Origin: Acidimicrobiia bacterium | Lineage (GTDB): Bacteria > Actinomycetota > Acidimicrobiia > Spongiisociales > ZC4RG35 | NCBI GenBank assembly: GCA_965215185.1 | Contig: OZ244034.1 | Location: 1,056,001-1,120,000 of the forward strand | DNA length: 64,000 bases | Direction of reading: 5' to 3' | In this document: piece after piece, positions 37,552 to 54,342 of the stretch | Layout: every line of letters begins with the position of its first letter | Position numbering within the stretch: position 1 is the stretch's first letter | Notes under the pieces: model-generated | Told to the model about the DNA's origin: nothing | What the model saw: only the letters and a program-made list of their open reading frames with translations | The model's database searches: none | Position numbers and translations under genes: made by a program

Positions 37552-38414
37552 TTAGGCGGCTTTTTCGAGGGGTCCGGCTCGAGCGTTGGGGAAGTGGTTG
37601 CCGTGCCAGCGGGTCATGTCTTTGCCGGTGCGTGCGTGGTGGGCGACTAGGGCAGTGTTGGTCTGGTACAGGCAGTAGGCGATCCAGTTGAGTTTGAGGC
37701 TGGTTTTGTCTTGGGTGCGGAGCCGGTCGTAGTCCAGTTGTCTTTTGTAGGTCGCGAAGTGCGATTCGATGTCTTGTCGGATTCCATACAAGGATTCGAA
37801 GAGGGGATCTGTTTCTGGTACGGGTCGCAGGGCGCGGGTTCAGCGGGTGTGGCGTTTGGCTTGGCGTTCTTGGGGGGTGCTGTTGTTTCGGATCCAGGTG
37901 ATGGCTCCGATCATGTGCTGTGGCACCACGGGATGGTCGGGTATCTCCCATTGGGTGTACACGATGTGCTTGCGGGTCCGTTTCCCGGGTTTTTTGATTT
38001 GGGTGCGGGTTCGTCGGAGGGGCTGGTAGTAGGGGTGTCCGGTTCCGTCGAAGACGAGGATGGTGGGGGTGCCGTTGAGCGCGACGATGTTTTCTTCGAA
38101 CTCGCCGTGTGCGGTTTTGAAGGTGCCGGGTCCCAGGTTGACTGCTGCGGTTTTGCCTTGGCTGGTGCGGGGTGTTTTGCTTATTGGCAGGATGCCTTGG
38201 TCCATGAGGCGGTCACAGTCGGCGGAGCGCATGGCCATGTCGTAGGTGACGGCGCGTATTCCTTGGGTGAGGTGGGGAAAGTCTTGGCGCATTTGGATGA
38301 TCTTTTGGGTGAACAGGTTGGCGTCGGACTGTCCGGGTTCGTCGAGGATTTCCGCGAAAAGAGGGATGCGTTCCTGCCGGTGGGGTCCGCGTACCACGGC
38401 GGCTACCACACAGT
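37552..38414 (-). pseudogene. Truncated second copy of the DDE transposase
   Basis: Near-identical to the E1 C-terminal half; nonsense TGA at about 37840; 5' half replaced at 38415. Confidence 0.9.
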
Positions 38415-38610
38415 TGTTGGCGATCATCGAAATTCCCCACTTCCTGGGGCTAATACCCGTTGTTGGGTAGGGCTCTCTCCAAGCTGCTGATTGAAGCAAA
38501 GTCGGCAGCTGTGGAGAGGAGCCCTGGCCCTTATGTTGGCATTGGAGGAATACGTGGAAGTTCATGCTTTGAGAAGGCGGGGATGGTCGATATCGGCTAT
38601 AGTGGCATAG
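38415..38610 (+). mobile_element. IS21-family left end and istA N-terminal fragment
   Basis: TGTTGGCGATCATCGAAATTCCCCAC end; MLALEEYVEVHALRRRGWSISAI from 38533. Confidence 0.7.
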
Positions 38611-38961
38611 CCGGAGGGTCGGTTTCGTAAGAAACCCCGACCCCCGGGTGTTCGTAGTAGGCGCGCAGATGGTTGGCGTCAGTGAAAAGCATCGGGCGCG
38701 GTCATGGCCGGTGAGGCTCAGCTGAAGATCCAGGGGCGGGCTTGTTTGTTGGAGAGGATGTCGTCGTTTGGTGATTTTGGACTCGATCTTGATGGCGAAC
38801 GGCGCGTCGGCTGCGGGGTTATAGAGTTCCTTGAAGTGGTCGTGGATCACATCAAGGTGCTGTCTCAGTTGAACCATCTGGGCGTCGCTCATGAGTAGCT
38901 CGCCGCGTCGCACTAGGTTGGAGAGCGAGAGTACCTCGTGCCGGTATATACTGATCGCTTT

Positions 38962-39156
38962 ATGAGACCTGATCCAAACATCGCCTTGATCCTCTCAATC
39001 TTTTTGGGTGGACTGGGAATTGATCGCATGTACGTTGGCCAAATCGGGCTGGGTGTGCTGAAGCTCCTCACCGCTGGGGGGCTGGGCATCTGGTGGCTGG
39101 TCGATTTGTTCCTGATCCGCGGGATAGCCCGGAAAGCCCAGCAAGAAGGCACTTAG
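38962..39156 (+). CDS. TM2-domain small membrane protein (copy 1)
   Basis: ALILSIFLGGLGIDRMYVGQIGLGVLKLLTAGGLGIWWLVD. Confidence 0.88.
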   Translation: MRPDPNIALILSIFLGGLGIDRMYVGQIGLGVLKLLTAGGLGIWWLVDLFLIRGIARKAQQEGT

Positions 39157-39840
39157 CACCCTGAGCGAGGGTTAAGGTGCAGACCGTCCTTCCCTCGGGG
39201 GACATGTCAAGTGCCCGACCTCACCTAAAGGCCGTGGCTGTCCGGTAACCGCTATTCCCAAAGGCGGATAGCGAGGGAACCGAGAAGGTTTGTGGGGGAC
39301 TTTTCTGATCAGTTGTGGGGTAGTTGCTAACTGTCTAGGTTCCGTCATCGGTTCCTTCGCCGGTGGAGCCTGGTATTCGGAGTCTGATTACGGTGCATTA
39401 GTCGCTGCCCAGGCAGCCGGTTCCATCAGTTTCGATAACGAACTCAGGGCCGAACTGTCCGGCGCAACGATCCCCGACCGCAAGTGGATGAATCTCAAAA
39501 CGGGACCGGTAGCGGTTTCGGAATTGGCCAGAAGTGGTTTCAGAATTTGCTGAAAGTGGTTTCACCGGCCTGTTCGCGCGATGCTGTGACCTGGGGCGTT
39601 GTGGTTTCGCGCCAGCGCCGACCCAACAGGGCCTCTCACACGATCACAGAATACGTGTCCGCCAAACCGGGGGAACTCCATTACCACTCCACCCTTTCAA
39701 ATAGGCGGTTCAACCGCAAGCTCCTTCTTTGCAGCCCAACCCTACGGTAGTTGATCCTTTCGGGGTGGTTCCGGTGCGTTGGTGGTGTGATGTGAGTGCG
39801 GTGGTCAATTACTGAGGTTCCCCTAAGTCTCTACCAAACC

Positions 39841-39971
39841 CACTCATACTGATAGGGGTCCCTTGGCCGGGGCGGGTCTGACCCATACCAAACCTGGCTT
39901 TTGCCTTTGCCCGATCTGTCGGCCTGTTTCCGGCTGAGGGATTGTTCACCGACCCGTGGGCGGATGTGACC
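39841..39971 (+). ncRNA. IS110 left end A, truncated bridge-RNA-like leader (target-binding loop only)
   Basis: Inverted homologue of 42800-42933; cut at 39972 by an IS3-type IR. Confidence 0.65.
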
Positions 39972-40025
39972 TGAACCGTGCCGATGCTCCTAGGATGCTC
40001 CTATTTTTGTCAAATCGAGAGCATC

Positions 40026-41252
40026 CTAGATATTCGCAGGGTTTTGTTGGGTGAGCCATTGTTGGTATTGGGTGGCGAGGTGGTGGTTGTGGTATAGGCC
40101 TCGTTCGAGTTGGGAGATGCGGTTGGGGTGGGTTTGGAGGGCGGTGGCGGCGTGGGTGAGGGTGGTCTGTGTGTGGTGGCGTTGGGTGCGTAGGAGGGCG
40201 CCGTTGGGTGTTGGTGGTGGGTTGGTGAGCAGGTGGTAGATCTCTCGGGCGATGTGGCGTTTTAGGCAGCGGATGATCTCCCGGCGGGTTTTGCTCTCGG
40301 TTTGGCGGCGGTGGGTGTATTCGATGGTGGGTTGATGGCAGCGCATCCGGGTGGTGGCGATACGCCATAAGGCGTTGTTGGCTTGGCGGTCGCCGCCTCT
40401 GTTGAGCCGGTGGCGTATGGTCTGCCCGGAGGAGGCCTGGACGGGACTGGCGCCGCATAATGCTGCGAAAGACGCTTCGGTGGTCAGGCGTTTGGGGTTG
40501 TCTCCTGCTGTGACCAGCAAAGCGGCGGCCGTGTCAGGACCGACACCCGGGGCGGAGAGCAGCGCCGGGTTGGCTCGGGAACAAAGACGAGTGATCTCTT
40601 TGTCGAGTTCTTTGATCTCGGTGGTGAGCGCCTGGCAGCGGCGCGCCAGATAGCGCAGTGTTTTCTTGGCGACCGTGGTGGTGGTATCGGCTGTGCCGGG
40701 ACGAAACCCGGCACAGGCTCGGATCCGGGCTTTGGTCGACAGTCCCCGGAGTTGGTGTTTGACCTGCTCGGGAGCGGTGACCACTAGGGCGTGGAGTTGG
40801 TTGATGGCCTGGGTGCGGGCTTTGATTGCGGAACGGCGGACTACCCGCAACATCCTGATTCCCTCGACCAGTCCGTCGGCGGTTTTGGGTCGGGCGGTGG
40901 CTTCACCGTTGAGAGCGGCCCGCCCGGCGGCTTGGGCGTCGGTGGTGTCGGTTTTTCCCAGTCGGCGGCGCAGCTGACGGTTGGGACGGTTGACTTCTAC
41001 CACCTCGATACCGATCCCGGTGAGATAGCGGGTCAGGCCGGCGCCGTAGCTGCCGGTGCCTTCCACCCCAACCCGCACCACACGACCCTGGGATCTCAAC
41101 CAGCCGCCCAGTTCCTCAAAGCCGGTTGCATCGGCCGGGAACGGAGCGGTTCCCAGGACTCGACCGGCGGTGTCCACTGCCGCCGCGACATGACAATCGC
41201 GATGGGTGTCCACCCCGCCAAACACCTCGACCAGGCTCTCTTTTTGTGACAT
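40026..41252 (-). CDS. IS110 family recombinase with a C-terminal HTH extension
   Basis: GGVDTH, GVEGTGSYG, KTDTTDA (DEDD); SSG...RHRLNRGGDRQAN. Confidence 0.95.
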   Translation of the reverse strand: MSQKESLVEVFGGVDTHRDCHVAAAVDTAGRVLGTAPFPADATGFEELGGWLRSQGRVVRVGVEGTGSYGAGLTRYLTGIGIEVVEVNRPNRQLRRRLGKTDTTDAQAAGRAALNGEATARPKTADGLVEGIRMLRVVRRSAIKARTQAINQLHALVVTAPEQVKHQLRGLSTKARIRACAGFRPGTADTTTTVAKKTLRYLARRCQALTTEIKELDKEITRLCSRANPALLSAPGVGPDTAAALLVTAGDNPKRLTTEASFAALCGASPVQASSGQTIRHRLNRGGDRQANNALWRIATTRMRCHQPTIEYTHRRQTESKTRREIIRCLKRHIAREIYHLLTNPPPTPNGALLRTQRHHTQTTLTHAATALQTHPNRISQLERGLYHNHHLATQYQQWLTQQNPANI

Positions 41253-41484
41253 GAATGTCTTCTTCTTCCTTGGATAGACTCGCGGGTATCACCGGACCGG
41301 AAGCGGTGGACAGAACACTCATGATGGTGTGGAGAAGCAAGGCTCCTATAAGGTCACATCCGCTCCCGGGTCGGGGAGTGTCCCCAGGCCGAAAGCAGGC
41401 CGACAGATCATAGATAAGGCACAAACGGCCAGTTTGTCAAGGGGTCAGACCCGCCCCGACCAAGGGACCCCACCATTATGAGTG
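41253..41484 (-). ncRNA. IS110 C leader, putative bridge RNA
   Basis: Target-loop segments TTGACAAAC and TCTATG; donor-loop segments ATAGGAGC and ATGAGTG. Confidence 0.7.
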
Positions 41485-41488
41485 TTTG

Positions 41489-42703
41489 TCAAATCGAGTT
41501 TTGTGTGGTGATCCATTGTTGGTATCGGGTGGCGAGTTGATGGTTGTGGTATTGGCCTCGCTCGAGTTGTGATAGGCGTATTGGGTAGGTGTGGAGGGCC
41601 TCGGCGGCGTGAGCGAGGGTTGTTCGCGTGTTTTTGCGTAGACAGCGCAGATGGGCGCCGTCGGGTGTGTCCGGTGGGTTGGTGAGCAGCCTGTGGATCT
41701 CTCGGGCGATGTGACGTTTGAGGCAGCGGATGATCTCGCGACGGTTTTTGCCTTCTGTTTGTCTTTTTTGGACATAGGCGATGGTTGGCTGGTGGCGGCG
41801 CATGCGGGTGGTGGCGATCCGCCACAGGGCCTGGTTGGCCTGGCGGTTCCCGCCGCGGTTGAGACGGTGCCGGACGGTACGTCCCGAGGACGCTTGGACA
41901 GGGCTTACGCCGCACAGAGCAGCGAAAGAGGATTCTGAGTGCATGCGTTCGGGGTTGTCGCCTGCTGCGACCAATAACACCGCGGCGGTGTCGGCGCCGA
42001 TCCCGGGGGCGGCCAACAGTGCCGGGTTGACCTGGGCGCAGAGATGGTTGATCTGGGTGGTGAGTTCTCCGATCTCTGCGGTGAGGGTCTGGTATCGGCG
42101 GGCCAGGGAACGCAACGCCGCTTTGGCGTATCTGATGGTGGTGTCGGCTGTGCCTGGGCGGAAACCGGCGCAGGTCTTTACGCGGGCTTTGGGAGAAAGT
42201 CCTCCAAGTTGGTGTCTGACCTGGTCGGGAGCGGTAACAATCAGGGCGTGCAGCTGGTTGATGGCCTGGGTTCGGGCTTTGGTCGCCGAACGGCGGGCCA
42301 CCGTGAGCATCCGTATTGCTTCTACTGGACCGTTACCGCTTTTGGGCACTGCGGTGGCCTGTCCGCTGAGAACCGCCCGAGCCGCGGCTTGGGCATCGGC
42401 GGTGTCAGTCTTGCCCAACCGGCGGCGCAACTGACGGTTTGCACGGTTCACTTCCACCGCCTCCATGCCGATACTGGTGAGGTGGCGGGCCAGACCGGCG
42501 CCGTAGCTGCCGGTGCCCTCCACCCCGACTCGGACCACCCTGCCGTGGGACTGTAGCCAATCGCCCAGTTGCTCATAACCGGCCGTGTCGACCGCGAAAG
42601 GGGCTGTTCCCAGGACTCGACCGGTGCTGTCCACCACCGCTGCCACATGAACATCCCGATGGGTGTCCACCCCACCAAACACATCTACCTGACCTACTGA
42701 CAT
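41489..42703 (-). CDS. IS110 family recombinase with a C-terminal HTH extension
   Basis: Same motifs as 40026..41252; a diverged paralogue. Confidence 0.95.
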   Translation of the reverse strand: MSVGQVDVFGGVDTHRDVHVAAVVDSTGRVLGTAPFAVDTAGYEQLGDWLQSHGRVVRVGVEGTGSYGAGLARHLTSIGMEAVEVNRANRQLRRRLGKTDTADAQAAARAVLSGQATAVPKSGNGPVEAIRMLTVARRSATKARTQAINQLHALIVTAPDQVRHQLGGLSPKARVKTCAGFRPGTADTTIRYAKAALRSLARRYQTLTAEIGELTTQINHLCAQVNPALLAAPGIGADTAAVLLVAAGDNPERMHSESSFAALCGVSPVQASSGRTVRHRLNRGGNRQANQALWRIATTRMRRHQPTIAYVQKRQTEGKNRREIIRCLKRHIAREIHRLLTNPPDTPDGAHLRCLRKNTRTTLAHAAEALHTYPIRLSQLERGQYHNHQLATRYQQWITTQNSI

Positions 42704-42933
42704 GATTCCTCCTACTCGGAATATAATTCGGGCTGTTCACCAGACCCGCTGGCGGATGGACAACACACTCATGGTGGTGGAGAAGCAAGGCTCCTATCAG
42801 GTCACATCCGCCCACGGGTCGGTGAACAATCCCCCAGCCGGAAAACAGGTCGACAGATCGGCACCAAGGCACAAAACCAGGTTTCATAAGGGTCAGACCC
42901 GCCCCGGCCAAGGGACCCCTATCAGTATGAGTG
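42704..42933 (-). ncRNA. IS110 B leader, putative bridge RNA
   Basis: Target-loop segments TATGAAACC and GTGCCG; donor-loop segments ATAGGAGC and ATGAGTG. Confidence 0.72.
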
Positions 42934-43150
42934 GGTTTCATAGAGGGTTGGTTGTTTGTGTAATTGGGGGTTTGATCGGGTTGGTTTGATGGTAGTTGGT
43001 TTCGTGTTCGGCGGGGGTGGTGTAGGTGGTATCTGGGGTGATTCCGCGAGGGTGGCGAAGGTGGTGTGGTCAAGGTCTCGCCAGGGTCCCCGGTTGCGGA
43101 TCAGTTCAGTTTTGTATAGACCGATGGTGGTCTCTGCCAGGGCATTGTCA
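42934..43150 (-). mobile_element. IS3-family (IS6110-like) 3' remnant whose IR is split by IS110 B
   Basis: DNALAETTIGLYKTELIRNRGPW; other half of the IR at 39972-39982. Confidence 0.75.
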
Positions 43151-43529
43151 AAGCCTCTATGAGTTTTCTCAGGTCAACAACCACGAAATGGGTGTGCTGG
43201 TTGACAGGAGTCAGTCCAGGGACCTGTACATGCAGATCTACGACGAGGCGATGAGGATTGTACGCCTGAGCGACGAAATCCGGGTCAAGGTTGCCCGAGT
43301 ACCGAAAGCACCCGTCGAGGATCCCCGACCCGGTGAGGCTCCCACCTGTCCAAAGTGCAACGAGACCATGGTCGTTCGCACAGCCAGGAAAGGCGCCAAC
43401 AAGGGCGAAACCTTTTGGGGGTGCTCCACCTTCCCCAAGTGCTGGGGCATGAGGCCTCTTGAAACTGCCCAAGCTGCCCCAAAGACCCCTTCCCGACGTG
43501 GGTTCCGTTCCCGACGGAAACGTTCTTAG
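43151..43529 (+). pseudogene. C-terminal fragment: PLD-like nuclease tail plus topoisomerase C4 zinc ribbon
   Basis: LYEFSQVNNHEMGVL; CPKCNETMVVRTARKG...FWGCSTFPKC; 5' part lost at the IS3 remnant. Confidence 0.65.
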
Positions 43530-43596
43530 CGATCACCCTAAGTACTCGCTGGCTTAGTCCTTAGGGGGTCGGTCGGTTAGTGAGGCTGGACCAGAG

Positions 43597-44041
43597 CTAT
43601 AGGTTTGGTCCAGTCGTTTGGCCACGATCCTGCCCGAGTCCGGCCAGACAGTCGGCCATGTCGTTCAAGGCGTGTCCGGAATGGCTTTTCACCTTCTCCC
43701 AGCGGATGTCCCGTCCGTTGAGCAGCCCGGCGATGGTTTCGATCAGTTCTCTGTGCGCCACCGGTTTACCCCCGGATCTCCGCATGTTGCGCTCGCGCCA
43801 ACCGGGAAGCCATTTGGTGAACGTTTTGATGACATATCTGCTGTCCGCTTGGATCAACAGCGGCTGGTCCGGTGGGAGAGACACCTAGAGTCTCGAGGAG
43901 GGCGGTCAGTTCCATGGCTTGGTGCGTTGTGTTGGGGTCACTGCCCCATTGGTACCGGCCGTCTTCGGTGGCCCATCCCCAGCCACCGGCGCCGCCCCTA
44001 ATTTCGCCAGACCCGTCAGTAGCGACAGTCAATCTTCTCAT
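43597..44041 (-). pseudogene. Ribonuclease HI, frameshifted near 43885
   Basis: VATDGS...GGWGW...MELTA, then in another frame ADSRYV, WEKVKSHSGHALNDMAD. Confidence 0.85.
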
Positions 44042-44263
44042 TTTGTTCACTGGCCTGTAATCCTAAGAGGAATCGTTGCAGTTCCTGATCACCTTACCGG
44101 GAATGGTCGAAAGGACTTGGGCCGAGCGGCAACAGCCCACCTCCGCTCCATTCTGCACTCCAAGTAGAAGGACCGGTCGGACAACTCCGGGTGCTGGCCG
44201 CCCGTCCTCAAGGCCATCATGGCAGGTCTGCGGTTCGGCTGATGAGCCGGGTTTCTTGGGCGT

Positions 44264-45082
44264 TTAGTCGGCATCAGGGTTTTGGGTCCTACTAGTTAGG
44301 TGTTCCTGTATCTGTCCTAACGAAGCTTCGATGCGTTCTTGGCGCTGTTCAAGAGACCTCAGTCGGTTAACGAGGTCGGACTCTTGGTCTGATTCAACGA
44401 AGTATGCGGCTATGTTGGCGGTAATGAAGGACACCACCCCGATCCCGGCCAGCATCAATACCACCGCGGTTGCCCGGCCTCCCGTAGTGACCGGGGAGAA
44501 ATCTCCGTAACCGACGGTGGTGAGGGTCACCACCGTCCACCATAGGCCATCAACTAGCGAGTGTCCCTCGAATAAAGCGAACAGCCCCCCGGTTGCCAAC
44601 GCTATGAGAACGAAGGCGGCGGTTGCGTAGCCGAGTCCCCGCTTTCGGAGAACGCGACGCAGATGCGTCAAACCCCGGGCGGAAGCCGCCGCTAAACCCG
44701 CCAACCGGAGAAGGCGAAGAACCCGGACAAGGCGAGACAATCGCGCAAGCCGGGTGAGAGCGAACAGTTCGCCCAGCAGTGGAAAAGAGACAAGAATGAC
44801 CAGAAGGTCCAGCCAGGCCTTCCTGGCATAAGCAAGACGGTCGTCGGTCAGGAGAATCACCACCGCGAATTCCACAGTGAACGCTGCCCAGATAAGCCAA
44901 TTGACTATCTCGAAAACAGTCTCCCACCCACCGACGGCGATCTGTTCGCCTATTACTACCGGGAGAACCGCCAGCGCCGCAACCATCACCGGTATCTCGA
45001 ACTGTTGACGAACCTTCGCAGCCCGCGGGTTCAGCACATCGTCGATAGTCCGGTGATCCCTCACAAATCCCAAAGAGTACAC
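44264..45082 (-). CDS. Potassium channel / ion transporter (6TM)
   Basis: S4-like RLARLSRLVRVLRLLRL; TTVGYGD selectivity filter. Confidence 0.9.
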   Translation of the reverse strand: MYSLGFVRDHRTIDDVLNPRAAKVRQQFEIPVMVAALAVLPVVIGEQIAVGGWETVFEIVNWLIWAAFTVEFAVVILLTDDRLAYARKAWLDLLVILVSFPLLGELFALTRLARLSRLVRVLRLLRLAGLAAASARGLTHLRRVLRKRGLGYATAAFVLIALATGGLFALFEGHSLVDGLWWTVVTLTTVGYGDFSPVTTGGRATAVVLMLAGIGVVSFITANIAAYFVESDQESDLVNRLRSLEQRQERIEASLGQIQEHLTSRTQNPDAD

Positions 45083-52015: not shown

Positions 52016-52906
52016 TCGGCCCGGTCCACGATCAAACCGGGTGTCCACCGGCAATACCCGAGTCCACGGTTGGGTGTCCACGGTTCGGTTCTTGTGATCA
52101 TTTTCGCTCCGGTATGCGCCCGCTGGTCACGGTTTGAACGTGACCCATACACCTAAACCTTGTTTCCCGGTGTTGATCCCCGGATGTTGCGGGCCTGTAG
52201 AGGCGGTGACTAGATGGTTGGAGACCCGAGGCGTATTTGATGGGAGCCTACCCGCATCCCCATAAAACCTTCGCTTGTTACGCCCCTGTCCGCTATTCGA
52301 CCGGGATCCAAGACATTGGTCTACGCTTAGGTACCCACTGTGAAAAACGACATGGCCACCACCAGCACTGATGATCTTTGGCGGCTGGCATGGTCCGCCG
52401 CTCCCGCTGGTGCCTTAACGACTTCGCCGTTCAGTGCTTCCGACTTGATCTGGTCAAGGAGCGACTTACCCAACGTGGTCTCCAGTGGGTAGGCAATCAC
52501 CTAGCGAAACCGCGTTAACGGACACAACCATCGATGCATTGGCAGGACGAGCGGCCCCAGTGGAATGCGACCCAGCCGAACCCGCTATGTAGGACATCCT
52601 TCAATCTTAAGAGGACGACCGCTGCAAGGGAGGTAACTACAAGAGCGGCTTGGAGGTGCGTGACCGAGAATTCCACGGGGCGCAACTTTGAGGACATGCG
52701 GCAGCCGTTTCAGGAATAGCCAAAACTGGTTTCGGAATTGGCTGAAAGTGATTTCAGCGTCCTGTTTGCGGGATGCTGTGACCTGGGGTGTTTTGGTTTC
52801 GCGCCAGCGCCCAAGGGCGGGGTTGGCGCGAAACTGTTGGGGTTTCTGTGCTTATGGTAGTTGGGGCGGAGAGTGGGGTGAACCGCGCCGGGTTTGGTAG
52901 AGGGTT

Positions 52907-54177
52907 TGGTGGTACCCGACTTTGGTGGAGTCGGGTTATTTGAATTGGTGGTGTGACTGACCCGGAAGGAGTCTTCATGCCTTATCGATATCCACCCGAG
53001 TTCCGTCGCAGGGTGCTGGATCTGCTGGCAGTTGGCAGGTCGGTAGCGTCGTTGTCAGCGGATCTTGGGGTGTCTGATCAGACGATCTACAACTGGCGGC
53101 GCCAAGACCGAATCGACCGCGGTCTACAACCGGGTGCCACTTCGGAGGAACAGGCCGAACTGTGGGCCGCTCGCTGTCGGATCGTCGAGCTGGAAACCGA
53201 ACTGGCCGTGACCAAGCGGGCTATTGAACTGCTGGGAGACCAGGTGGTGCACCTCAAAGACGCTACCAGGCGATCCGGACCATGAGAACCGAAGGGCTTC
53301 CCAGGTGGCGTGTCGAGTGCTCGAGGTGTCACAGTCCGGGTTCTACGCCAGGGTGGTCCCGGCCGCCGTCAGCCCGCTTGCATCCGCCACGCCTGGTTGA
53401 CCGACGTCATCTGTCACATCCATGAACAGTCACGCGGCACCTATGGGGCGCGGCGGGTGCACGCCGAACTGCGGTTGGGTCATGGAATAACCGTCGGACA
53501 CAACGCAGTAGCGATGCTGATGCGCAGAGCCGGTCTAGCTGGTCTTAGTAGGTGACCGAAGTCCCAGACGGCGGACCCGCCCGGTGGACACGCCCGGTGG
53601 ACCTGGTCGACCGTAACTTCGCCCGTTTCGAACCGGACCAACTGTGGGTGACCGATATCACAGAGCATCCCACCCGGCAAGCGCAAGGTGTACTGCGCGG
53701 TGGTGCTGGACGTGTACGGGCCGCCGGGTCGTCGGCTGGTCGATCGACAACACGGCCACCTCCGGACTGGTCACCTCCGCGTTAGGTATGGCAATCGGGA
53801 ACCGCCAACCCGACCCCGGCACGGTCATACATTCGGACCAGGGCACCCAATTCACCTCCTGGGCGTTCACCCAACGGGCCCTCGAATCCGGTCTGGTTCC
53901 GTCCATGGGAACCGTCGGGGACTGTTTCGATAACGCCACCATGGAATCGTTTTGGGCTCGTATGCAGGTCGAGCTGTTGGACCGCAGGAGGTGGAGGACC
54001 CGTATCGAACTCGCCAACGCTATCTTCGAGTACCTAGAGATCTTCCACAACCGCCACCGGCGCCACACCGCACTGGAAATGCGCACCCCCATCGAATACG
54101 AAAGAAACCACAACAACAACCTAACCATCGCACCACTGATCCAAGTGAGCTGACTCCACAAAACCGGGGGACCATCA
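52907..54177 (+). mobile_element. IS3 family element (1271 bp, frameshifted orfA/orfB) enclosed by a second IS3-type IR pair (52879-52906, 54178-54201)
   Basis: IRs TGGTGGTACCCGACTTTGGTGGAGTC and GACTCCACAAAACCGGGGGACCATCA; orfA MPYRYPPEFRR; WVTDIT, HSDQG and DNATMES. Confidence 0.9.
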
Positions 54178-54342
54178 CTCTATGAATCCCGGTACGGTTC
54201 AGGGGGTTGGTTGTGGCGCGGGTGGGGTTTATGTGAGGTTTTGAGGGGCTGGATCTAGGGGTTTTGGAGTGTGGGCCGCGGTGATCCAGGGCTTTTGGGT
54301 GTTTGGCCCGCGGTGATCTGGGGCGGGGTGGTTTTGGGGTGT

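Follow-up and report, generated by a model that had tools for sequence, protein, structure and literature searches.

A stack of IS110-group and IS3-family insertion sequences in an Acidimicrobiia genome, putatively built by bridge-RNA-guided insertion into the ends of other elements

Here we describe a stack of insertion sequences (ISs) in the 3.12-Mb, single-contig genome of an Acidimicrobiia bacterium, located between positions 39829 and 43152 of a 64,000-nucleotide (nt) stretch that was analysed as a whole and is referred to as the window (G000:C1:1056001-1120000). Three of its layers, A, B and C, are IS110 elements and the fourth belongs to the IS3 family. C lies in the right end (RE) of B, B lies in a terminal inverted repeat (IR) of the IS3-family element, and the end of the latter truncates an older IS110 leader, A; this nesting, which a first-pass annotation had read from the letters, is confirmed and real. 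We propose, with a probability of about 0.8, that the four-layer stack arose from successive site-specific insertions guided by bridge RNA. The anatomy of the locus, the matches between guides and flanks, the recurrence of both at other loci and a conserved RNA structure can be observed directly, and from the nesting we infer the order of events.

Anatomy of the nested locus

Read along the plus strand, the locus consists of a 13-nt flank resembling an IS3 IR, A, 11 nt of an outer IR, an 11-nt tail of B, C, the rest of B, 13 nt of an inner IR and a remnant of about 200 nt from the 3' part of an IS3 orfB (Table 1). Both C and B contain an intact open reading frame (ORF), of 408 amino acids (aa) and 404 aa, respectively. 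The Pfam profiles PF01548 (N-terminal, DEDD RuvC-like) and PF02371 (C-terminal, Tnp) run nearly end to end through both proteins (profile coverage 2-150/155 and 3-85/87), with E-values of 4e-23 and 3e-20 in C and of 2e-26 and 6e-20 in B. The two elements are 74% identical in protein and about 75% identical in DNA, and because the DNA identity is only about 75% they are to be regarded as siblings and not as duplicates.

The recombinase genes are preceded by leaders of 232 nt in C and 229 nt in B. Among 21 inverted-repeat pairs in C none joins the two ends of the element, and this lack of terminal or subterminal IRs places C in the IS110 group and not in the IS1111 group. Two further features point away from the IS1111 group, namely that both variable guides lie in the upstream leader and that the RE is confined to the 32 nt after the stop codon.

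Removal of C had been predicted to restore the right end of B, and it does so: TTGACAAAC joins CTAGGAGCATC in a form that matches the RE of other copies, CGATTTGACAAnnATAGGAGCATC, in length and layout. The restored string of 20 nt includes one terminal C that is common to element and target, and excision of exactly 39994-41484 (1491 nt) leaves 19 nt. A loose regular expression for right ends gave 40 matches, of which we read 27 as real IS110 right ends and the other 13 as due to chance; the real ends in this genome have the layout ..GATTTGACAAnnATAGGAGCATC or a close variant of it, which makes the restored end of B a normal RE.

Two side observations concern the surroundings of the stack. In the public run X5 one short contig joins 39992 to 41483 and skips 1490 nt, giving the canonical ..AAACATAGG.. 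form, which would be a B-like RE without C; its shorter side measures only 21 nt, it may stem from a related element, and we give it no weight. The DNA 5' of A (window 38900-39841) is a mosaic of short repeats that occur at at least 10 other places in the genome with 80-93% identity, and the final ~160 nt before A are unique.

Table 1. Features of the nested locus and of a comparison element, in window coordinates
Feature	Position	Strand	Remarks
Left flank of A, CTCTACCAAACCC	39829-39841	+	Same sequence as the inner half of the IR at 52879 (IS3 family)
A, truncated IS110 leader (5' part of the putative bridge RNA)	39842 to ~39971	+	92% identity to the leader of B
Left target guide of A, ATACCAAACC	39885-39894	+	
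Break point of A	39972-39974		TGA, 3-nt ambiguity
Outer 11 nt of IS3-family terminal IR, TGAACCGTGCC on the + strand	39972-39982	-	Right half of the target of B
Last 11 nt of the right end of B, CTAGGAGCATC	39983-39993	-	Severed from B by C; read by the donor guide of B; also right half of the target of C
C, complete IS110-group element	39994-41484	-	
Right end of C	39994-40025	-	TTGACA at 40008-40013
Recombinase ORF of C	40026-41252	-	
Leader of C	41253-41484	-	
Left donor guide of C, TAGGAGCC	41341-41348		
Right donor guide of C	41316-41332		
Left target guide of C, CTTGACAAAC	41432-41441		
Right target guide of C, ATCTAT	41410-41415		
B, main part, IS110-group element	41485-42932	-	
TTGACA in the left part of the right end of B	41487-41492	-	
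Recombinase ORF of B	41489-42703	-	
Leader of B	42704-42932	-	
Left donor guide of B	42789-42796		
Right donor guide of B	42766-42773		
Left target guide of B, TTATGAAACC	42880-42889		
Right target guide of B, GGTGCC	42860-42865		
Inner 13 nt of IS3-family IR (42933-42945), then 3'-end remnant of an IS3 orfB-like gene (..FDNALAETTIGLYKTELI..)	42933-43152	-	Truncated near 43150
Comparison IS3-family IS, degraded frames	52879-54201	+	Left IR TGAACCGCGCCGGGTTTGGTAGAG carries the target type of A

Leaders, guides and flanks

An alignment of 12 leaders from this genome resolves a conserved scaffold that is interrupted by two hypervariable patches. The first patch, 10 nt after GGTCTGACCC, repeats the left flank of the respective element, and the second, a stretch of 5-6 nt enclosed by TTGTGCCTT and GATCTGTCG, reads as the reverse complement of the right flank; examples are collected in Table 2. 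With loci from other genomes included the collection comprises 55 leaders, 40 of them distinct, and one junction row was kept for each distinct left guide. A leader pattern with fixed spacing (60 relatives) missed this genome's own copies since the spacer varies, and shorter patterns combined with regular expressions were used instead.

Table 2. Guide sequences and flanking DNA
Element	Left guide	Left flank	Right flank implied by right guide	Right flank
B	TTATGAAACC	cTATGAAACC(c)	GGCAC	GGCAC
Copy at genome 979955	AAACTCAACC	cAACTCAACC	AAGCCA	AAGCCA
C	CTTGACAAAC	tTTGACAAAC	ATAGA	CTAGG; ATAGG at the second C-type right junction
A	ATACCAAACC	cTACCAAACC(c)		

Across 26 guide classes the left guide agrees with its cognate left flank at a mean of 7.9 of 10 positions, compared with 4.4 when guides and flanks are cross-paired, and across 18 classes the right guide agrees with its right flank at a mean of 4.2 of 5 positions, compared with 1.6. 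Poor matches (3/10 in two classes and 1/5 in one) were kept in these averages, and no p-value is attached to them because related elements are not independent.

These figures bear directly on the possibility that the nesting is passive, in other words that IS-rich regions tolerate insertions and that stacks survive by chance without any targeting of IS features. Such an origin would be in tune with a genome that is crowded with IS debris and with the repeat mosaic upstream of A. However, the guides match their flanks far above the cross-paired controls, position and orientation recur with base-exact precision (between bases 11 and 12 of the IS3 IR in four of four cases, and after ..AAAC in the RE), and an intact copy of the target of B exists elsewhere in the genome; we consider passive nesting highly improbable.

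The leaders also share a predicted fold. With 19 diverse leaders, RNAalifold places both guide patches in one internal loop, delimited by a 13-bp outer and a 3-bp inner stem, and finds a second closed region around TAGGAGCC ... CATGAGTG. The stems that close both loops are paired in 93.4% of cells, a figure that falls to 42-54% when the partners are slid as a control; changes on both sides occur in 9 of 30 pairs. In the second region the donor guide TAGGAGCC matches ATAGGAGC of the RE, whose sequence is TAGGAGC, and the donor guide CATGAGTG matches CACTCAT in the left end (LE); in C the right donor guide is complementary to the LE over 17 nt at 88%. By this prediction the leaders have the two-loop layout of target loop and donor loop that the available text on IS621 defines (PMC11208160), and we infer that the RNA is made and used as in IS621. 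Two RNA runs contained 6-7% of the sampled words.

In the mechanism that we propose, each leader of ~230 nt upstream of a DEDD/serine recombinase gene would fold into a target-binding loop followed by a donor-binding loop. The target loop would present a 10-nt left guide identical to the DNA on the left of the element together with a right guide, 5-6 nt long, that complements the DNA on the other side, and the donor loop would recognise the element's own RE and LE through the two motifs named above.

Insertion into IS3-type inverted repeats

When B is removed, an IS3-type IR is restored as had been claimed: TGAACCGTGCC (39972-39982) and GGGTTTCATAGAG (42933-42945) make up a 24-mer that stands unbroken at genome position 1545673 on the minus strand. 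There it forms the terminus of an element, and the ~25 nt that come next are similar to the left end of the IS3-family comparison element (window 52879-54201). The latter is bounded by IRs of the type TGAACCG.., closely similar to the IR targeted by B, and gives matches to the Pfam profiles HTH_Tnp_1, HTH_21 and rve/rve_2/rve_3. With the empty site known exactly from the 24-mer at 1545673, the insertion of B can be placed between bases 11 and 12 of an IS3-family terminal IR; there is no target duplication, and both junctions have one C in common. What the fragment at 42933-43152 shares with IS3 elements is limited to the IR, a short orfB-like tail and a DNA similarity of ~73% to the ends of other elements of this kind. 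Its 80-aa remnant has a weak BLASTP match to the rve ORF of the window IS3 (E 0.003) and no match in Pfam.

Two proposals had been made for A, that the IS3 end interrupts it and that its flank resembles another IS3 IR, and both agree with the sequence. The similarity of A to the leader of B ends precisely at the TGA with which the IS3 IR begins, and the left flank of A, CTCTACCAAACCC, is identical with the inner half of the window IR at 52879; farther 5' of this flank no IS3 similarity was found. The guide in the own leader of A and of B matches the flank of each, in line with the view that both are aimed at IS3-type IRs.

The same arrangement recurs. Three further IS110 right ends adjoin ggt(a/g)cg(g/a)ttca, positioned and oriented as in B, which brings the insertions between IR bases 11 and 12 to four out of four. 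In another genome, a metagenome-assembled genome (MAG), a related IS110 (L062) has the left guide ACCGGGAAAC and is flanked by ctccggggaaac and cggggcggttc, which together constitute an IS3-type terminal IR, and targeting of IS3 IRs is therefore not limited to the genome described here. An IS3 element whose IR has been split at bases 11/12 should be disabled at that end.

A separate observation concerns genome position 1005646, where an IS110 leader has a guide, TTACGAAACC, that looks directed at an IS3 IR, yet it lies inside an IS3 element, at ~320 of the window IS3 copy (97.8% flank identity). This guide matches at 6/10 positions only, and the locus may represent an off-target insertion.

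Insertion of C into sibling right ends

The guides of C spell TTGACAAAC followed by ATAG, that is the sequence of a sibling RE between the -35 box and the terminus, which upholds the suggestion that C targets the TTGACA-bearing right end of related IS110s. This target is the RE that the IS110 clade conserves, with the cut placed 3 nt past the -35 hexamer and 11 nt short of the terminus, and since the guides spell this RE, C appears to be naturally programmed to land in the right ends of sibling IS110 elements.

C-type copies in sites unrelated to IS110 right ends were looked for, and of the 3 further junctions, C-type or C-like, 0 fall outside RE-like sequence. These junctions belong to two C-type pieces elsewhere in the genome (98.9% and 99.4% identity) and to one C-like leader (80%). 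At 2341231 a C-type LE (98.9%) follows ..GCGATTTGCAAAAC, the end of a different, decayed IS110; a DEDD-domain ORF (Pfam) lies upstream, and the C-terminus of an IS110-type recombinase extends up to the junction. At 1612692 a C-type RE (99.4%) is continued by the RE tail ATAGGAGCGTC, and the C-like leader at 909139 (80%; guide TTTTGCAAAC) stands after ..CTCGATTTGCAAAAC, where only a short RE remnant survives.

The 9-mer of TTGACAAAC occurs 20 times in the genome. Two of the occurrences are the C-type guides themselves, one, in the RE of B, is occupied, and the remaining 17 lie elsewhere and are empty. In relatives the commonest RE is TTGACAAACATAGGAGCATC, found in 10 of the 30 junction rows that yielded an RE, all of them from other genomes, and it fits the C guides at 9-10/10 and 4/5 positions. 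The RE of C itself reads ..AAAAATAGG, with an A where the crossover C should be, and the same variant occurs in lineages whose guides are not directed at right ends (L021, L011). The RE of C would escape C-type insertion through the changed crossover base, and the pattern, though compatible with such self-immunity, does not count as evidence for it.

A different route to the same arrangement would be recombination on the donor side or by half matches, yielding a tandem IS110 locus because the RE of B resembles the donor arm of C, with no programming of the target loop. The DNA to the right of C (CTAGGAGCATC) is indeed a near copy of C's own RE tail and readable by its donor guide, and stacked right ends are present in this genome. 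Moreover, the available text of a preprint (10.64898/2026.08.14.744561) reports tandem IS110 modules, reinsertion at loci already taken, an excess of half matches and a lack of target immunity. Growth of this kind would put the crossover at the donor core and call for no target guide spelling TTGACAAAC. The crossover, however, took place 11 nt upstream of the terminus of B, at the boundary between the left and right guides of C and not at the donor core. The left guide of C matches 9-10 of 10 bases of TTGACAAAC, which the donor loop does not read, and in the other C-type junctions the RE is cut at this internal position too; B and C, only ~75% identical, did not arise by duplication. A tandem origin seems improbable to us on this evidence, and we favour insertion of C under the guidance of its target loop.

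Consequences for element B

The first-pass annotation had also put forward that C would block the excision of B. Excision in the IS110 family, as the available text of PMC13626964 describes it, recombines two junction halves, each of which is read across both RNA loops. At the two outer junctions of B all four segments read by the B bridge RNA are intact and paired: the left-guide match in the left flank, the LE, the 11-nt RE tail with TAGGAGC, and the right flank GGCAC. The 2.9-kb B::C composite should therefore remain an excision substrate, and a formally valid one. An excision block would have in its favour that C physically splits the RE of B and takes the -35 box away from the terminus; set against the four intact segments and the ability of C to leave scarlessly on its own ends, it is an unlikely outcome, and the sequence lends this proposal no support.

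The likelier effect concerns the promoter that forms at the junction of the circle. TTGACA is located 14 nt from the RE end, and bases 4-9 of the LE read CATAAT in C and CATACT in B, resulting in a 17-nt spacer on circularisation. C is inserted 3 nt after the putative -35 box of B and breaks the 17-nt spacing between -35 and -10 that circularisation would restore. In IS621, according to the available text of PMC11208160, the RE-LE junction rebuilds the bridge-RNA promoter, and recombination was lost on removal of the -35 except where the RNA was provided in trans. Most likely, by analogy, C separates the -35 box of B from the circle-junction promoter, so that B could not switch itself on after circularising. 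The insertion would leave B excisable only as the B::C composite, in a circle unable to rebuild the junction promoter of B.

Other targets and a second subfamily

IS110 elements of this genome adjoin other mobile DNA at many of their ends. By our reading, among 27 right ends, 12 adjoin IS110-derived sequence (8 with BLAST support and 4 on an 11-12-nt RE tail alone), 3 adjoin IS3 IR halves, 5 an ISL3-end motif and 7 other sequence; of 19 left ends, 7 adjoin IS110 sequence, 3 IS3, 2 ISL3 and 7 other sequence.

A second IS110 subfamily, with the LE TGTGAGTAT.. and the RE ..CATAGAAGCATC, is represented by seven leaders in the genome. Its member at 981096 (L096, genome 978100-981300) combines the left guide TAAATTTGAC and a right guide implying ATAGG with the left flank ..AATTTGAC, and its guide is accordingly RE-directed; the locus has been rearranged, as the right flank found there now is at odds with the guide. 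Two right ends of the second subfamily are followed by ATAGGAGCTCAC. Genome positions 1621752 and 1656975 are further second-subfamily places noted together with this member.

Each of the two subfamilies also occupies recombinase genes of the other. Copies of the first, at 979955 and 374093, sit at the end of the ..GDRQLN motif of the second-subfamily recombinase, and second-subfamily insertions at 373077 and 1613045 sit between ..QANNA and LWRIA in a motif of the first, the one at 1613045 inside a C-type copy. At one locus (L095, genome 370800-375400) this gives rise to a triple nest, with second, first and again second subfamily from the outside inwards, in which both interrupted ORFs break at position 66-67/87 of PF02371. 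A stretch of 730 bp in the same locus (370961-371690) holds five stacked IS110 right ends; the LEs and REs there no longer pair up, and deletions or recombination must therefore have intervened.

Another guide, AACTGAAATC, together with a right guide implying GATGA, is aimed at the region around the stop codon in a transposase gene of the ISL3 family (DDE_Tnp_ISL3, E 1e-57; L094:716-2047, genome 2517915-2519246), for which intact sites are found at genome 2507888 and 2519241. Two IS110 copies with this guide are present here and several in a Spongiisociaceae MAG (L023, L026-L028, L049, L050).

Order of insertions and points against guided stacking

In the succession suggested by the nesting, the IS110 element A would have entered an IS3-type IR, after which an IS3-family element would have landed in the leader of A. 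The IS110 element B would then have entered the terminal IR of that IS3, between its 11th and 12th base, and the IS110 element C would have entered the right end of B.

A number of observations weigh against stacking by guided insertion. The second C-type site matches the left guide at 7/10 positions only (TTGCAAAAC compared with TTGACAAAC), the tail of B matches the right guide of C at 3/5 only, and the assignment of A to an IS3 target is made on 13 nt. The three C-type loci may amount to fewer than three independent events, as the 5' piece (positions 1-447) and the 3' piece (1113-1491) could be one rearranged copy. The crossover shared by both junctions is a single C, as opposed to the CT dinucleotide core of IS621. 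B-type, A-type, ISL3-directed and some other flanks are longer by one C, which separates the left-guide match from the LE (e.g. window 42933 / 39841); L021 and L051, two diverged elements with one common target, occur with and without it.

Several searches likewise returned nothing in support. In the Protein Data Bank (PDB) a sequence search with the C recombinase gave no match at E<=0.001, the solved IS621 chains included, and an Rfam scan of 38000-45000 gave 0 matches at E<=1. No circle junction was seen in four public runs of short Logan contigs, in which much cross-mapping between B and C occurs. C-type guides were detected in 0 of 120 genomes of the family and in 0 of 400 genomes of the class (including the unpublished G295 and G422), and the metagenome search for C-type guides and their flanks that had been advocated led to one exact match only, in a transporter-like gene and attributable to chance. 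The class-wide scan made use of a generic 23-nt pattern whose matches are mostly due to chance or unrelated, with forward and control counts of similar order outside this genome. Failure to find C-type guides elsewhere is not evidence of absence, because fragmented MAGs are often without assembled IS copies.

Relation to known systems

The locus had been likened to IS4321 and IS5075. These members of the IS1111 group reportedly insert into the terminal IRs of Tn21-family transposons. As an analogy the comparison is apt: in both situations a DEDD-family IS occupies one fixed position and orientation in the terminal IR of another element, here B and three other copies in IS3 IRs. It does not amount to membership, since the elements described here have no subterminal IRs and carry their guide upstream of the gene, whereas the IS1111 group has subterminal IRs and a seekRNA downstream of the gene (PMC11187229, available text). 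The host element is different as well, being an IS3-family IS and, in the case of C, a sibling IS110.

A close likeness is to IS621 and the IS110 group with bridge RNA, as portrayed in the available text of Durrant et al. 2024 (PMC11208160) and Hiraizumi et al. 2026 (PMC13626964). Common to both are a recombinase with DEDD and serine domains, a long non-coding LE upstream and a short RE, and the lack of terminal IRs. Two internal loops are present in each, with left guides in the same sense as the left target and donor and right guides complementary to the right target and donor, and a -35 in the RE, putative here, would join a -10 in the LE on circularisation. The natural targets differ: judging from the sequence they are other insertion sequences here (IS3 IR and IS110 RE), and repetitive extragenic palindromic (REP) sequences for IS621. 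The left guide here measures 10 nt, and the crossover has a single common C and not a CT dinucleotide.

Expanded or tandem IS110 loci (Hu et al. 2026, 10.64898/2026.08.14.744561) resemble the present stack, in so far as the available text describes them, in their repeated insertion into occupied IS110 loci and their stacked right ends. Growth of those loci is explained in that work by flexible half matches to donor arms and by tandem duplication, whereas here the incoming target loop would spell the resident RE and the elements are diverged siblings. The REP-targeting members ISPpu9, ISPpu10 and IS621 share with the elements of this genome a short, multi-copy repeat as landing pad, which in their case is largely neutral according to the available text (PMC12288879, PMC11208160); here, in contrast, the repeat is a functional part of a rival element, be it the IR, the junction-promoter spacer or a recombinase coding motif.

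Taken together, the IS110 bridge-RNA system is known, and IS4321/IS5075 already provide an example of an element that targets the IR of another transposon. The natural variant, an IS4321/IS5075-like targeting of ends that is extended to IS110 on IS110, appears to be new. Full-text literature searches gave no report of a target loop aimed at the RE or the recombinase gene of a sibling IS110, although supplementary tables (e.g. lists of natural targets) may hold cases.

Significance

Bridge recombinases are under development as programmable tools for genome writing, and their natural targets are known mainly as REP-type repeats. The genome described here provides a compact natural series of closely related leaders with different guides, several of which have as their targets functional parts of other mobile elements, siblings among them. 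It offers a natural case of mobile DNA parasitising mobile DNA, with guides aimed at the ends of other elements. Two questions become testable with such a series, namely how guides are reprogrammed in nature and whether competition among RNA-guided transposons involves the disabling of one another's ends or genes. For annotators it follows that stacked IS110 fragments can be ordered, guide-directed insertions and not random debris.

A broader reading, which we put forward tentatively and hold to be possible without being probable, is an RNA-guided conflict of the IS110 lineages of this genome with each other and with other IS families. Guides would have evolved repeatedly against sequences that the rival cannot easily change, and attackers would escape their own kind via a changed crossover base in the RE. 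The proposed targets of such a conflict would be the junction-promoter spacer of the RE (three guide types in two subfamilies), a conserved recombinase coding motif, the terminal IRs of IS3 elements and the 3' end of the ISL3 transposase gene. If true, this would mean hyperparasitism and an arms race among programmable transposons, beyond the use of safe landing pads.

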